A stretch of DNA of 64,000 bases, taken from positions 6,067 through 70,066 of the forward strand of contig JAFUTO010000032.1 of the NCBI GenBank assembly GCA_017484205.1, in the 5' to 3' direction. The DNA comes from Bacilli bacterium (GTDB lineage: Bacteria > Bacillota_I > Bacilli_A > RF39 > UBA660). Below, one piece after another: positions 12,805-32,600 of this stretch. The stretch's first letter is position 1. Each line of letters starts with the position of its first letter. The position numbers were made by a program, and so were the translations under genes. The notes under the pieces are model-generated. The model worked only from the letters and a program-made list of their open reading frames with translations. It ran no database searches and had not been told where the DNA came from.

Positions 12805-14127
12805 TTAAAGTTTCATAATCCTATTTATGTTATCTATTAATGTATCTTTCATTAATTTGTCTTCCAATAGATTAATAGAAAATGTTTTACTTCCCGCATG
12901 ATTAATAGATGTACCTGAGTGATATATTACACTTTTATCTAAAACAAAATATCTATCATGAAATGTGTTATCATATATTACTTTTAAATTATGATATTGT
13001 TCGTTATATTTATCTGTATCATCTTTAGTTAATTTAGTATTTTGTTTTGTTATCAATATAATATCACATTTTATATTCCTTATTATATTTAATAAACTTA
13101 TATCAGTATACCCATCTATAATTATTAATTCCTTTTTAGCCTGTTTAAATATTTTTAATATATCACTATATGCATCATATATTTGACCTTTAAAATACAT
13201 TAATTCTTTAGGTTTAAAGTATGAAAAAACTTCATCGAATTTATCATCATGGTCTTTTAGTTTATTATTTATCCTAGTTATAGATTTATATATATCCCCA
13301 TTTTGAATCAAATAATGTTTCATCACAACAAAAGCACGCATAATATCTATACTTACCTGAGTAGCTACTGATGTCCTTAAAACAGCACTTAACATAGCTA
13401 CTCCCTGTTCTGTAAAGGCATATGGGAGATATTTTATATGTTTTCCTCTACCATTGCCACTTTCGTTTAAGGTTTCAACTTGAAACCTTAAAGATAGTGG
13501 AATCTCTTCTTCAGTCAACTGAAAATAGAAGTCTTCAGGAAATCTTTCTATATGTCTCTTTACTGCTAAATTTATCGTTTTTGTTCCATTTTTACACTGA
13601 TATAAATAAGCTAAATCACTATCTAATATAACTTGTTTTCCTCTAATTTTATATATCATGTTTTCGATGTTTTGCCCTTTAATTATAAGGTTATCTTTAT
13701 TCTCTAGTTTATCAAATTCGTATAATAGTTCTTTAGCTACTTCTTTTACTCTATCGCTTCTCATAATACTACTTAATATAGATATTCCTTCACGAGTTAA
13801 TGCCCTATGTGGATACTTTAAATTTCGTCCACGGCCAGAGTTGTTCAAGGTCGCAGATTGCGACCTCAAAGTCGTATTCAAGGTGACATTTTGGCACCTT
13901 GAAAGTGTTTCATATTCATCAAATAAAAGTTCAAAGCAATTATTATTCAGAAATTTGCCATAATTTCTTTTCACAATTCTATTTAAATATTTTGTCTCTA
14001 CTCCAAATAACTTAGCTAAATCACTATCTAATATTACATATTTACCTCTAACTTCATATATCATACTACTTATGTTTTCTTTAACTACTATGTCATTCAT
14101 GTTATCATCCTCTCTAAATAAGCACAA
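12805..14127 (-). CDS. tandem ORF6N-domain protein (antirepressor-like DNA-binding N-terminal repeats) with uncharacterised C-terminal domain
   Basis: Two repeats: IYEVRGKYVILDSDLAKLFGVETKYLNRIVKRN... and IYKIRGKQVILDSDLAYLYQC...AVKRHIERFPEDFYFQLTEEE. These are typical ORF6N/KilA-N-like motifs. Confidence 0.55.
   Translation of the reverse strand: MCLFREDDNMNDIVVKENISSMIYEVRGKYVILDSDLAKLFGVETKYLNRIVKRNYGKFLNNNCFELLFDEYETLSRCQNVTLNTTLRSQSATLNNSGRGRNLKYPHRALTREGISILSSIMRSDRVKEVAKELLYEFDKLENKDNLIIKGQNIENMIYKIRGKQVILDSDLAYLYQCKNGTKTINLAVKRHIERFPEDFYFQLTEEEIPLSLRFQVETLNESGNGRGKHIKYLPYAFTEQGVAMLSAVLRTSVATQVSIDIMRAFVVMKHYLIQNGDIYKSITRINNKLKDHDDKFDEVFSYFKPKELMYFKGQIYDAYSDILKIFKQAKKELIIIDGYTDISLLNIIRNIKCDIILITKQNTKLTKDDTDKYNEQYHNLKVIYDNTFHDRYFVLDKSVIYHSGTSINHAGSKTFSINLLEDKLMKDTLIDNINRIMKL
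13840..13905. other. GC-rich pair of perfect hairpins inside the ORF6N CDS (in-frame 33-nt insertion-like segment)
   Basis: GGTCGCAGATTGCGACC palindrome (13849-13865) and TCAAGGTG-acattttgg-CACCTTGA (13878-13902). Segment flanked by an ACCTTGAA(T/C) direct repeat. Encodes the extra TTLRSQSATLN residues absent from repeat 2. Confidence 0.5.
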
Positions 14128-17550: not shown

Positions 17551-17603
17551 TCCTTTGTTTTTATAGTTTAAACTCAAAATAGTTTAGAATTAATACAAGT
17601 CTA

Positions 17604-17632
17604 TTTACACGAACACTTTTTCGTGTTATAAT
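17604..17632 (+). promoter_or_regulatory. sigma-A type promoter TTTACA-N17-TATAAT (spacer forms a 7-bp hairpin) for the small-peptide mRNA
   Basis: ctatTTTACAcgaacactttttcgtgtTATAATttta. Spacer ACACGAA/TTCGTGT hairpin can also terminate clpP. Confidence 0.45.
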
Positions 17633-17715
17633 TTTATAGGAGAGAAAACTTGGGTACTTGCTCTTACCAATTCAGTTTAGGTTACCTCCTAGACTATGGG
17701 AAGGAGCTCGATATT

Positions 17716-17790
17716 ATGAAGAGAGAAAATTACTTTCTAAAATTAATCATCGTTATACTATTAGCAATAGTAATATTGCTAGTAATATAG
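17716..17790 (+). CDS. 24-aa hydrophobic peptide MKRENYFLKLIIVILLAIVILLVI (candidate type I toxin)
   Basis: Strong SD GGGAAGGAG 9 nt upstream of the ATG. Single TM helix. 5' UTR contains CCUCC anti-SD-like sequence. 11-bp 5'/3' long-range complementarity (17651-17661 with 17840-17850). Confidence 0.4.
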   Translation: MKRENYFLKLIIVILLAIVILLVI

Positions 17791-17899
17791 AAATAGTGCC
17801 TACTCTAACGTCATAGAATAGGCACAAACCAACTTATTGGCAAGTACCCATCTACGAAGTGAGTACCTCCATTTTTTATTTTATGAAATTTCTTTCACT
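17785..17899 (-). ncRNA. candidate cis-antisense sRNA (antitoxin-like) convergent with the peptide mRNA 3' region
   Basis: Own promoter (next feature). Terminator hairpin GTGCCT...AGGCAC (17796-17825) followed by UAUUUCUAUAUU on the minus strand. Conserved in a second copy at 32452-32559. Confidence 0.4.
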
Positions 17900-17905
17900 A
17901 AATAC

Positions 17906-17934
17906 ATTATATATTATTTTCTCATTATAGTCAA
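17906..17934 (-). promoter_or_regulatory. perfect sigma-A promoter TTGACT-N17-TATAAT on minus strand
   Basis: Minus strand reads tagtcaTTGACTataatgagaaaataataTATAATgtat. -35 at 17929-17934, -10 at 17906-17911. Confidence 0.55.
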
Positions 17935-17937
17935 TGA

Positions 17938-19317
17938 CTACAATTTTATTCTTTCTTCAATATAATCTACTAATTCATCAAGTTTAATTTTAACTTGTTC
18001 CATAGTATCTCTATCCCTTACAGTAACCATATCATCATTTAATGTATCTTCATCAATAGTTACACAGAAAGGTGTACCAATAGCATCTTCTCTTCTATAT
18101 CTTTTACCAATAGAAGCTGTTTCATCATATGTAGTCATAAAATGTTTAGATAACATATTATAAACTTCTAATGCTTTTTCACTATGATATTTTTTAACTA
18201 AAGGCAATACTGCTGCTTTATAAGGAGCAAGATAAGGTTTTACCTTTAATACTATTCTCTCATCATTTTCTAATTTTTCTTTTTTATAACCTTCTGTTAA
18301 TATAGCTAAGAAAAGTCTATCTACACCTACTGATGGTTCGATAACATATGGTAAGTATTTTTCATTAGTATCTGGATCTAAATATCTTAAATCTTGCTTA
18401 GAATGATTCATATGAACTGATAAATCATAATCTGTACGATCTGCTATACCCCAAAGTTCTCCCCATCCCATAGGGAACATATACTCAATATCAGTCGTAG
18501 CTTTACTATAGAAAGATAATTCTTCTTTAGAATGATCTCTATATCTTAAATTTTCTTTAGTTAATCCTATTGTTTCCAAGAAATCTAAACAATATTTTTT
18601 ATAATAAGCAAACCATTCTAAATCTGTATCAGGTTTACAGAAAAACTCTAATTCCATTTGTTCAAACTCACGAGTTCTAAAAATAAAATTACCTGGAGTT
18701 ATTTCGTTTCTAAAACTTTTACCAATTTGTCCTATACCAAATGGTACTTTAGCACGCATAGCTCTTTGTACATTATTAAAGTTAACGAATATACCTTGAG
18801 CTGTTTCACCACGAAGATATACTTTACTTTTAGTATCTTCAGTCACACCTTGATGTGTTTCAAATAATAAATTAAATTTTCTTATTGGGGTGAAATCACA
18901 AGCGCCACATTTTGGACATGGTATTTTATTGTCTTTAATGTAGTTTTCTAGTTTTTCATTATCCCAACCATCGCCTGTTTCAGCTCCTTTAGTAAAGTCT
19001 TCAATTAATTTATCTGCTCTTTCTCTTGATTTACATTTCTTACAGTCGATTAATGGATCAGCAAATGAAGCAACATGTCCTGACGCTACCCAAACTTCAG
19101 GATTCATAAGTATTGCAGAATCTAATCCATAATTATGAATTTCTTCTTGAATAAATTTTTGCCACCAAGCATTTTTTATATTATTTTTAAGTTCTCTACC
19201 TATAGGACCATAATCCCACGTATTAGATAATCCTCCATATATTTCACTACCTTGAAATATAAAACCATATTGTTTACTAAAGTTAACTAATTCCTCCATA
19301 TCAAATTCTTTTTTCAT
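17938..19317 (-). CDS. glyQS: glycyl-tRNA synthetase (dimeric GlyQS type)
   Basis: N-terminal ...[22 protein letters not shown]... and class II aaRS motifs. Confidence 0.9.
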
Positions 19318-19930
19318 AATTTTCCACCTTTCTATCTATTATACTTTCAATAGGTTCTCCTACACCTACTAATGTTAATCCATTCTTTCCATATATAGAA
19401 CTTTTAACATTAATTCCAGTTAATCCATATGTTTTAATAAACATATCAATTAAAGATTTCATATTATCTAAATCACCTAAGTTTAAATTACCACTAATGT
19501 CTTGATGTACTTCATATGATAATGTAGCGTCTTCCTTAACTAATCTACTCATAGAATTATTTTCATTATATGGTAGTATAGTAAGATAAACGTTATTAAT
19601 ATCACCACTTAATATCATATTTCTTGCATATATAAACATATCAGATAATCTTTTACTATTTAATGATCTTATGATATCACTATTTTTCTTAATCGCATTA
19701 TCAGCAAAAGATATAGACGCATTAGTAGTATCATATCTAACAATGTCATCATATCTTCTTCCATTAATACTTACATTATGCCTAATTGTTTTAGATATCA
19801 TAAGTGAGTCAATATGTGAATGAAGCATACTTTTTAAATTTTGCTTATCCTTATATAGTTTTATACTACCATCTGTGATATTACTAACAATAATATCATC
19901 TTCAAAATCCACTAATAAATCAATCTTCAT
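19301..19930 (-). CDS. hypothetical protein (209 aa) encoded between a T-box-like leader and glyQS, overlapping the glyQS start by 17 nt
   Basis: ORF with ATG and RBS-like AGGGGG. No recognisable domain. Confidence 0.4.
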
Positions 19931-32130: not shown

Positions 32131-32343
32131 AATAACCTCCTAATAATAAAAAAATACCTATAATGTAAGGACGAAAACCGTGGTACCACCTTACTTCATA
32201 GATATCTATGCTCTTAATTCCTTAACGCGGGATAACGATTTAACTCCAAATACGTATTTTCATTTATTATCTTGGATAGTTTTCATCTACCACTATCTTT
32301 CTAATTACCAATAATAAACTACTATTATTTTTCTTCATCAATT
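32131..32343 (-). promoter_or_regulatory. T-box-like leader (candidate Tyr-responsive) upstream of deoC-tyrS
   Basis: Minus strand has AAGTAAGGTGGTACCACGG (32178-32196), a 16/19 match to the T-box consensus including UGGU (tRNA-Tyr discriminator A). Candidate UAC specifier in GAAAAUACGUAU. GTAAGG...CCTTAC helix then U-run and SD AGGAGG. Confidence 0.4.
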
Positions 32344-32349
32344 AATGAT

Positions 32350-32379: not shown

Positions 32380-32600
32380 ATTTATTTACATGAACATCGT
32401 TTCATGTTACAATTATCCTTATCCTATCGATAGCATTATTGCTGTTGTTAGTCTAAGAAATAGCACCTGACTTCTAGACAGGTGCTACCACACATAGGTG
32501 AGTACCCAACTAGGCCAAGTCGAGTATCTCCTTTTTATTTTATGCAAATTCTTGCATCTACATACATTATATACTAAATATGTCGTATAGTCAATCAATC
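32380..32600. repeat. internally deleted second copy of the 17600-17935 element (promoter hairpin plus sRNA region; no intact peptide ORF)
   Basis: Aligns with copy A over TTTACA-hairpin-TA(T/C)AAT and over the whole sRNA region. Hairpins carry compensatory substitutions. Only an ATG-less hydrophobic remnant (SFHVTIILILSIALLLLLV*, 32394-32456). Confidence 0.55.
32452..32559 (-). ncRNA. second copy of the candidate sRNA (orphan antitoxin-like)
   Basis: Promoter TTGACT(32589-32594)-N17-TATAAT(32566-32571) on the minus strand. Terminator hairpin AGCACCTG-acttctaga-CAGGTGCT (32462-32486). Confidence 0.35.

Follow-up and report, generated by a model that had tools for sequence, protein, structure and literature searches.

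Known toxin-antitoxin (TA) systems of type I came for a long time only from Proteobacteria, Firmicutes and Tenericutes, and a first cyanobacterial locus was added in 2025 (PMC12390103, PMC5367252). Those of Gram-positive bacteria follow a general layout in which the antisense RNA lies on the 3' side of the toxin gene (PMC8594479, PMC6563280). Here we analyse a locus of this layout in a Bacilli bacterium (GTDB lineage RF39, UBA660). It is located in a stretch of 64,000 nucleotides (nt), referred to as the window (assembly GCA_017484205.1, contig JAFUTO010000032.1, positions 6,067 to 70,066 of the forward strand). In the spacer between clpP and glyQS, a predicted gene for a hydrophobic peptide of 24 amino acids (aa) faces the predicted gene of a small antisense RNA. 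In silico support covers the elements of the locus, their conservation and their covariation. We regard the locus (copy A, 17604-17934) as most likely a type I TA-like module, belonging to a family that is absent from curated libraries. Its predicted elements are, in window coordinates:

17604-17632, plus strand: promoter of the peptide mRNA, TTTACA-N17-TATAAT, 11 of 12 consensus matches
17638-17882, plus strand: peptide mRNA of about 245 nt, from an AGGAG... start to the U-tract UUUUUUAUUUU, its ends placed from promoter and terminator
17639-17661, plus strand: 5' arm of a panhandle, GGAG (17639-17642) and CUUGGGUACUUGC (17649-17661)
17660-17668, plus strand: anti-Shine-Dalgarno sequence (anti-SD) GCUCUUACC, immediately 3' of the 5' arm and partner of the Shine-Dalgarno sequence (SD) in the minimum free energy (MFE) structure
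17698-17707, plus strand: SD region GGGAAGGAGC, 8 nt 5' of the ATG at 17716
17716-17790, plus strand: open reading frame (ORF) of 24 aa, MKRENYFLKLIIVILLAIVILLVI, with a charged N-terminus and one hydrophobic helix, stop codon TAG at 17788-17790
17839-17882, plus strand: 3' arm of the panhandle and likely intrinsic terminator of the peptide mRNA, hairpin 17839-17870 and U-tract 17872-17882
17906-17934, minus strand: promoter of the antisense RNA, TTGACT-N17-TATAAT, 11 of 12 matches
17787-17899, minus strand: antisense RNA of about 113 nt, the candidate antitoxin, placed by promoter, fold and family alignment
17899-17883, minus strand: hairpin 1 of the antisense RNA, a short 5' hairpin
17882-17871, minus strand: A-rich linker of the antisense RNA
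17870-17839, minus strand: hairpin 2 of the antisense RNA, covarying in the family
17825-17796, minus strand: terminator hairpin of the antisense RNA, 12 pairs, followed by UAUUUCUAUAUU and a tail
17787-17882, both strands: overlap of the convergent transcripts, about 96 base pairs (bp) from their predicted ends, comprising mRNA 3' untranslated region (UTR) and 4 nt of the ORF end

Comparison with described type I systems

With txpA/RatA and bsrG/SR4 of Bacillus subtilis (also bsrE/SR5 and yonT/SR6), copy A shares convergent promoters with the antisense RNA on the 3' side, an overlap at the mRNA 3' end of roughly 75-125 nt and a small membrane peptide as (candidate) toxin; the long perfect duplex likewise implies degradation of the RNase III type. 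However, neither the peptide nor the RNA gave a sequence match to these systems. The overlap, which reaches part of the ORF in the TxpA/Bsr modules (PMC8594479), here consists nearly entirely of 3'UTR, and the B. subtilis toxins comprise 28-60 aa (PMC6563280) as compared to 24-36 aa in the present family. Closure of the mRNA by a panhandle of its 5' and 3' ends is a further difference.

The par module (fst/RNA II) of Enterococcus faecalis plasmid pAD1, of the Fst/Ldr type, also has convergent promoters and a 5' stem-loop that sequesters the SD. As predicted here, the very 5' end of its mRNA is concealed in an intramolecular helix (5'-SL, 5'-UH), and this sequestration stabilises the fst mRNA (PMC7472228). 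The bidirectional terminator that fst and RNA II share was not found at copy A: after the hairpin at 17825-17796 the plus strand reads AAACCAAC with no U-run, and the mRNA must extend about 60 nt further to the conserved 3' arm and its U-tract. Nor were the direct repeats DRa/DRb found; the repeated element is inverted in the DNA, and the mRNA 5' arm and antisense hairpin 2 are therefore of the same sense instead of complementary. The family peptides lack the PXXXG(C) motif (0 of 16 aligned peptides), the conserved Trp and the charged tail of Fst toxins (PMC7472228), and RNA II measures about 40 nt (PMC7472228), the antisense RNA here about 110 nt. Judged by sequence, the module is a member neither of par/Fst nor of TxpA/Bsr. 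A sequence-only reading of the window had likened it to Fst, TxpA and BsrG; the kind of system is supported by our sequence-level tests, whereas none of these families was matched in sequence.

Pairing of the mRNA 5' and 3' ends, which renders the closed mRNA inert, is known from hok/Sok of plasmid R1 and from aapA/IsoA of Helicobacter pylori (PMC8594479, PMC6733600). Their antisense RNAs, however, are aimed at the 5' leader or the ORF and are fully overlapped by the mRNA, whereas here the 3'UTR is targeted; moreover, the hosts are Gram-negative, the toxins are unrelated, and removal of the 3' arm leaves the SD hidden in most of our predicted mRNAs. The ibs/Sib modules of Escherichia coli resemble the family in having several copies per genome and a 19-aa, almost purely hydrophobic toxin without a charged C-terminus (PMC8309996), to which the subgroup of 24-27 aa is similar, but Sib spans the whole ibs ORF (PMC8594479), the phylum is another one and sequence similarity is lacking. 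The CD2517.1/RCd8-type modules of Clostridioides difficile share with the family a gut host among the Firmicutes, convergent overlapping genes with a long complementary region, and toxins which are unrelated to other families and known only through transcript mapping (PMC6563280). They differ by toxins of 34-59 aa with a Lys-rich tail and by their mostly prophage-borne or CRISPR-adjacent position (PMC6563280), whereas the present modules sit between housekeeping genes.

A known housekeeping RNA family, a possibility that the sequence-only reading itself had raised against its interpretation, was rejected: Rfam returned nothing in this region of the window even at E <= 10 and, at the gathering score, only a tRNA for 14 related loci. 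We also rejected a known toxin family, since 13 family peptides gave nothing above noise in Pfam and NCBIfam, with sub-threshold hits to unrelated families (SecE, SNARE and similar) and none to HOK_GEF. A collection of 15 billion proteins contains a single family peptide, unnamed or listed as 'hypothetical protein'. The ORFs of the family are missed by gene callers, and in an ENA metagenome assembly with the same contig zero genes are called in the clpP-glyQS spacer. By undescribed we mean absent from Rfam 15, Pfam, NCBIfam and the literature searched, a comparison that does not extend to the lists of T1TAdb and Fozo 2010.

The module and its homologues

The genes flanking copy A, named by Pfam matches of ClpP and GlyRS, are convergent and enclose a spacer of 387 bp (17551-17937), one bp less than first given for this otherwise correctly placed gap. 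In this AT-rich region promoter-like sites are not enriched (7 vs 4.0 +/- 1.8 in shuffled sequences). As the promoter hexamers alone are not significant, the case rests on RNA folding and on the recurrence of the elements among homologues. Unless otherwise given, comparative statistics refer to 19 homologous modules, and labels of the form L0xx or L1xx denote individual homologous or syntenic loci. Each element is found again in the 19 modules, at an unchanged relative position. These comparisons show that the predicted elements of copy A are not a product of chance.

Homologues were recovered in two ways. First, 80 loci around glyQS from reference genomes (1.3 Mb) were searched by tblastn and by a scan for peptide features: an SD, charge at the N-terminus, and a hydrophobic stretch, 15 residues or longer, up to the C-terminus. 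The scan returned five ORFs, one unrelated and four of the family (the window copy twice, including L001, as well as L013 and L042), and each of the latter faces a convergent small RNA gene. Second, a pattern made from the 5' part of the antisense RNA hit 26 metagenome contigs, 24 of them genuine and most with a convergent SD and hydrophobic ORF. A strict pattern of hairpin 2 from both window copies had no match in 185,579 reference genomes and was too specific. The family thus far has about 25 members in uncultured gut Bacilli of low G+C content (26% in the window), and the RNA pattern together with a hidden Markov model constitutes a signature for finding more. Of the homologous modules, about 25 are from gut metagenome contigs and two from reference metagenome-assembled genomes. 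The nearest GlyRS matches, at 82% identity, come from 'Firmicutes bacterium CAG:582' and metagenome-assembled genomes of uncultured gut Bacilli.

The family behaves as is typical of TA modules: copies are multiple or in tandem, occupancy of syntenic sites is patchy, and the toxin half decays while the antisense RNA is kept. According to nhmmer, L101 carries three copies, and two or three each are present in L086/L097, L105, L108 and L042. The space downstream of glyQS is occupied by a module in the window and in L042 only and is devoid of one in the closer relatives L002, L005 and L012. A phage or plasmid origin was rejected, as two scans of viral contigs gave 0 matches and 1 chance match, and blastn gave none against plasmids and one 53-nt match against phages (E = 8e-3).

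The peptide gene and its mRNA

The plus-strand promoter, the strong SD and the 24-aa ORF of the sequence-only reading were all found at copy A. The promoter is of the extended -10 type (TGn-TATAAT, TG at 17624-17625), and in nearly all modules it stands 4-7 nt upstream of the panhandle 5' arm, as expected of an mRNA start after the -10 element. The folding energy of the predicted mRNA is -73 to -76 kcal/mol (z = -7.3). Throughout the family the predicted mRNA has about 225-250 nt and encodes a hydrophobic peptide of 24-36 aa, preceded by a GGAGG-like SD in 17/19 modules. The closest relatives of the window peptide are MKKDNIFFKLIIIILLAIVVLLVI (L104), MKKDNMFFKLIITLLLVIIILLIV (L095) and MKKENKFLKIIILLLIFLLVILIFKI (L013). 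As in type I toxin genes, a ribosome-binding site precedes the ORF, and its product is small (<60 aa) and hydrophobic and is predicted to form a transmembrane helix.

Sequestration of the SD, another trait of type I toxin mRNAs, is found in the predicted folds. CCUCC at 17686-17690 had been taken for the anti-SD. This assignment was rejected, for in the MFE structure the SD pairs with the sequence at 17660-17668 instead. The probability of an unpaired SD is 0.06 in copy A; among the homologues the MFE structure likewise has the SD paired, and of the 18 modules scored, 14 have a probability of 0.00-0.24 while the rest reach up to 0.58. The predicted mRNA fold also includes a hairpin in the 3' half of the ORF (17754-17789, plus strand; 16-nt arms, 88% complementary).

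The reading frame is intact in 16/19 modules. Lengths fall mainly into classes of 24, 27 and 30 aa, with a few others of 25-36 aa, and within a class no frameshifts occur. Variable sites are distributed over codon positions 1, 2 and 3 as 45/25/48; position 2 is the least variable, which fits conserved NUN codons for hydrophobic residues. All three sites at which the closest pair (L084 and L106) differs are synonymous.

The product might be something other than a toxin, namely an antisense-regulated pheromone or inhibitor precursor as in prgQ and iad, or a small regulatory membrane protein; we consider this unlikely. The peptides do resemble bare signal peptides in their Lys/Arg-rich N-terminus and the hydrophobic run to the C-terminus, and one member has a weak, non-significant NCBIfam match to PhrA-type peptides (E = 0.38). 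The prgQ and iad products of enterococcal plasmids measure 22-23 aa, with expression set by a convergent antisense RNA (Anti-Q), and the family peptides may resemble such precursors. However, beside both window copies we found no receptor or regulator of the PrgX/RRNPP type, no processing gene and no attenuated downstream operon such as accompany prgQ/Anti-Q. Copy A adjoins clpP and glyQS, copy B (see below) a T-box leader and rbfA, and neither strand has a downstream gene. Moreover, the mRNA is by prediction locked at the SD and at both ends, and a harmful product would better account for the tandem arrays and for the recurrent loss of the peptide with the RNA kept.

The antisense RNA

At sequence level, the locus encodes in cis an antisense RNA with complementarity to the peptide mRNA, as type I systems do. 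Its promoter in copy A had been called perfect; it is there, with 11 of 12 matches. On the family average it is nearer to consensus than the peptide promoter, whereas in copy A both have 11/12. Among the 19 modules the -35 element conforms to TTGnnn in 18, the spacer measures 17 nt in 17, TGn precedes the -10 element in 15, and the -10 element always lies 6 nt upstream of a conserved AG start.

The predicted antisense RNA of copy A folds at -37.7 kcal/mol (z = -5.9) and is matched by nhmmer with E = 1.8e-13. In all members the RNA comprises 107-131 nt and three hairpins, the last being an intrinsic terminator. Compensatory changes affect five of the seven pairs of hairpin 2, and wobbles of G-U outnumber C-A mismatches by 28 to 3, which indicates selection on the antisense strand; the hairpin is also stabler on this strand in 17/19 modules. 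At least four complementary variants of the hairpin 1 stem occur (UGAAA/UUUCA, UGAAG/CUUCA, GCAAA/UUUGC, UGCAA/UUGCA), all of which fold. Their covariation escapes scoring on the MAFFT alignment, as the register of the stem shifts from variant to variant. The minus-strand hairpin with U-run proposed at 17796-17825 exists with its 12 pairs, but the U-run of copy A is rather poor. In the 30-aa subgroup (L090, L092, L093, L100, L107) the C-terminal Lys-Lys-stop (AAAAAA TAG/TGA) templates the U-tract of the antisense terminator, so that one stretch is doubly constrained. Copy A, with its poor U-run, has no such C-terminal Lys codons.

The proposed overlap with the 3' end of the peptide mRNA holds for the predicted transcripts, and the layout is conserved. 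A perfect sense/antisense duplex over the overlap of copy A amounts to -172.8 kcal/mol. In most members the end of the antisense RNA falls 0-13 nt from the stop codon of the ORF, and the overlap with the ORF extends up to 32 nt.

Copy B and decay of the toxin half

A second copy, proposed together with the first, was located at 32385-32594 by blastn of the spacer against the window. It retains both promoters and the minus-strand RNA but contains no peptide gene:

32385-32451, plus strand: remnant of the peptide gene, with the promoter TTTACA-N17-TACAAT kept and only the 3' end of the ORF left
32452-32559, minus strand: predicted orphan antisense RNA with the same three hairpins, nhmmer E = 1.2e-14
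32566-32594, minus strand: promoter of the antisense RNA, TTGACT-N17-TATAAT

Aligned to copy A and L095, copy B has a deletion of about 115 nt that removed 5'UTR, SD, start codon and the N-terminal half of the ORF. Around copy B, L095 shares synteny with the window, with flanks 83-87% identical, and has an intact 24-aa ORF, SD and 5' arm. By this alignment, copy B represents such a module whose toxin half was lost. Other peptide genes are damaged by a premature stop (L101), by absence of SD and 5' arm (L085) or by a change of the SD from GGAGG to GGATG (L106, next to the otherwise near-identical L084), and L098, L103 and L105 are RNA-only loci. Decay of the toxin with the RNA kept is the pattern to be expected of a harmful gene guarded by an RNA, although the recovery of most loci through the RNA inflates the asymmetry.

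The same loci could be explained if the RNA of about 110 nt were itself the functional unit, acting in trans, with the hydrophobic ORF an incidental or decaying passenger. Intact promoter and structure at the peptide-less loci (copy B, L098, L103, L105) and selection of hairpin 2 on the RNA's own strand would agree with this. We nevertheless find it very improbable: SD, frame, length classes and hydrophobic codon pattern of the ORF are kept across divergent members, strand-specific covariation of the mRNA occurs in the 5' arm, outside the small RNA gene, and the peptide-based search independently recovered RNA-bearing modules.

The orphan RNA of copy B (32452-32559) and the 3'UTR of copy A (17787-17882) form a predicted duplex of -68 kcal/mol, compared with -31 +/- 5 for shuffled sequences and -173 for the cognate pair. 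Cross-protection of copy A by copy B is possible, and orphan antisense RNAs such as that of copy B may serve as 'anti-addiction' elements against related toxins.

Pairing of the mRNA ends

The sequence-only reading had noticed that TGGGTACTTGC (17651-17661) is complementary to 17840-17850. The match is 100%, and the complementarity proved to be larger than had been seen and to covary. This 11-bp match is the core of a predicted panhandle of about 26 bp, in which the mRNA's first nucleotides are paired with its last. In the MFE structure of copy A the 5' arm pairs with 17840-17852 and GGAG (17639-17642) with CUCC (17867-17870). The 5' segment of the mRNA, about 28 nt, reads AGGAACAUUUAAUUGUUGGGUG... 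in most members and AGGAGAGAAAACUUGGGUACUUGC in copy A, and it has its complement in the last 35 nt or so preceding the U-tract. As the 3' arm also complements antisense hairpin 2, the 5' arm of the mRNA is a same-sense near-copy of this hairpin.

The cognate duplex of copy A amounts to -33.3 kcal/mol and outdoes all 18 non-cognate 5' arms. In 17/19 modules cognate duplexes reach -28 to -40 kcal/mol with z scores of -3 to -9, and in 13/19 the cognate partner is the best against all 18 non-cognate ones. The panhandle is part of the MFE structure of 18/19 predicted full-length mRNAs, with the SD paired to an anti-SD 3' of the 5' arm. L013, which was found via its peptide, independently of the RNA pattern, folds alike (z = -11.4). 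In the alignment of the arms 86.7% of cells are paired, as compared to 38-45% with a slid partner, and 18 of 26 pairs changed on both sides; none of 500 shuffles reached the observed values.

Deviations from Watson-Crick pairing comprise 50 G-U against 13 A-C cells, which argues for selection of RNA pairing on the mRNA strand and not of a terminal inverted repeat at the DNA level. That the inverted repeats of about 30 bp are the ends of a miniature mobile element and the RNA features its by-products, as repeats at both unit ends, presence or absence at syntenic sites and several copies per genome might suggest, is scarcely credible: this G-T over A-C bias is expected of RNA and not of a DNA repeat recognised by a protein, the repeat runs precisely from the predicted transcription start to the U-tract, phage and plasmid collections gave no convincing match, and neither target-site duplication nor transposase was noticed in the sequences read, although no dedicated search was run.

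Activation as in hok, by trimming of the 3' end, found no support. When the mRNA is truncated in silico by 45 nt at its 3' end, the SD becomes free in no more than 2 of 18 members.

Proposed mechanism

As a type I TA module, copy A would work as follows. The plus mRNA of about 245 nt would encode a single-helix membrane peptide of 24 aa and would be built to be translationally silent, the anti-SD (17660-17668) capturing the SD as soon as the latter is transcribed. After termination both mRNA ends would zip up, so that the panhandle is stacked on the SD helix with both ends hidden; the closed mRNA would be silent and probably stable. The convergent promoter would produce the antisense RNA of about 113 nt, perfectly complementary to some 96 nt of the 3'UTR including the 3' panhandle arm. 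By analogy with RatA/txpA, SR4/bsrG and the C. difficile modules (PMC6563280), the resulting duplex would be a substrate of RNase III; it would also displace the 5' arm and thereby expose the 5' end to RNase J/Y, the mRNA being destroyed before translation. If the level of antisense RNA fell, the stable pool of closed mRNA would yield peptide, which would insert into the membrane and cause arrest or death.

More tentatively, and as less likely than not, the module may be a three-way RNA switch. Because the first 28 nt or so of the mRNA are a near-copy of antitoxin hairpin 2 in the same sense, the 5' end and the antitoxin would compete for the mRNA 3' end. The closed panhandle could then represent a stable, inert pool of toxin mRNA with the antitoxin target partly hidden, and invasion by the antitoxin could both create the RNase III duplex and release the 5' end to decay by exonucleases. 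If true, such a switch would join fold-back inhibition of the hok type with 3' antisense control of the RatA type; this combination is not described for Gram-positive type I systems, and the lineage in question is known only from metagenomes.

Several points weigh against the interpretation of copy A as a type I module. What goes beyond the sequence features, namely transcription of both RNAs, action of the RNases, toxicity and neutralisation, is our inference. In copy A the antisense terminator is followed by a poor U-run (UAUUUCUAUAUU), and the hairpin at 17839-17870 is weak on the mRNA strand (-6.2 kcal/mol, as compared to -14.2 on the antisense strand), which makes the 3' end of the mRNA uncertain. 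Since removal of the 3' arm rarely frees the SD, hok-like activation is unsupported. Kinship of the sequences inflates the covariation statistics, and the impression that the RNA is kept while the toxin is lost is partly an ascertainment effect, as most homologues were found via the antisense RNA. Finally, peptides of 24-27 aa lack the charged C-terminal tail of most Gram-positive type I toxins (PMC6563280, PMC8309996).

The modules would represent a new sequence family of a known kind, distinguished by a well-supported panhandle and by an mRNA 5' end that mimics the antitoxin. A toxin of 24 aa, if true, would fall below the sizes that reviews list for type I toxins of Gram-positive bacteria. 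The covarying panhandle in combination with an antisense RNA overlapping the 3' end provides a clean natural test case for the interplay of end-to-end closure and antisense invasion.

Further observations

The spacer of the plus-strand promoter is itself a palindrome (ACACGAAC..TTCGTGT, 17607-17626, 7-bp arms), which appeared terminator-like in a scan. In copy B (32388-32407) it is kept via the compensatory changes C>T and G>A; L095 has the identical palindrome and L096 a part of it. A role as operator of the toxin promoter, or as insulator against read-through from clpP, is conceivable.

Clustered modules or RNA-only copies are located at 7354-8227 in L101, 1645-2201 and 6241-6310 in L086, 4464-9080 in L105, 106-585 in L108 and 8732-9088 in L042. 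The RNA of L098 (5199-5308) shares its downstream flank with L089 (6823-6936), yet is of the L083 type and has no peptide gene, a sign that modules at one site may have recombined or replaced one another. The unrelated ORF from the feature scan (L066, 16727-16834, minus strand) encodes a hydrophobic peptide of 35 aa with an SD (MKRISLFPLRF...).

About 3.5 kb from copy A, at approximately 12805-14100 of the window (11218-12513 in L001), lies an antirepressor-like gene with ORF6N and Phage_pRha domains, which may be a prophage remnant. A 209-aa ORF without Pfam match (19301-19930, minus strand) overlaps the start of glyQS by 17 nt. The T-box leader (RF00230, 94.3 bits; 32164-32344, minus strand) adjoins copy B with its 5' side and is followed downstream by a deoC-like ORF (32130-31495) and then by tyrS (31493-30261).

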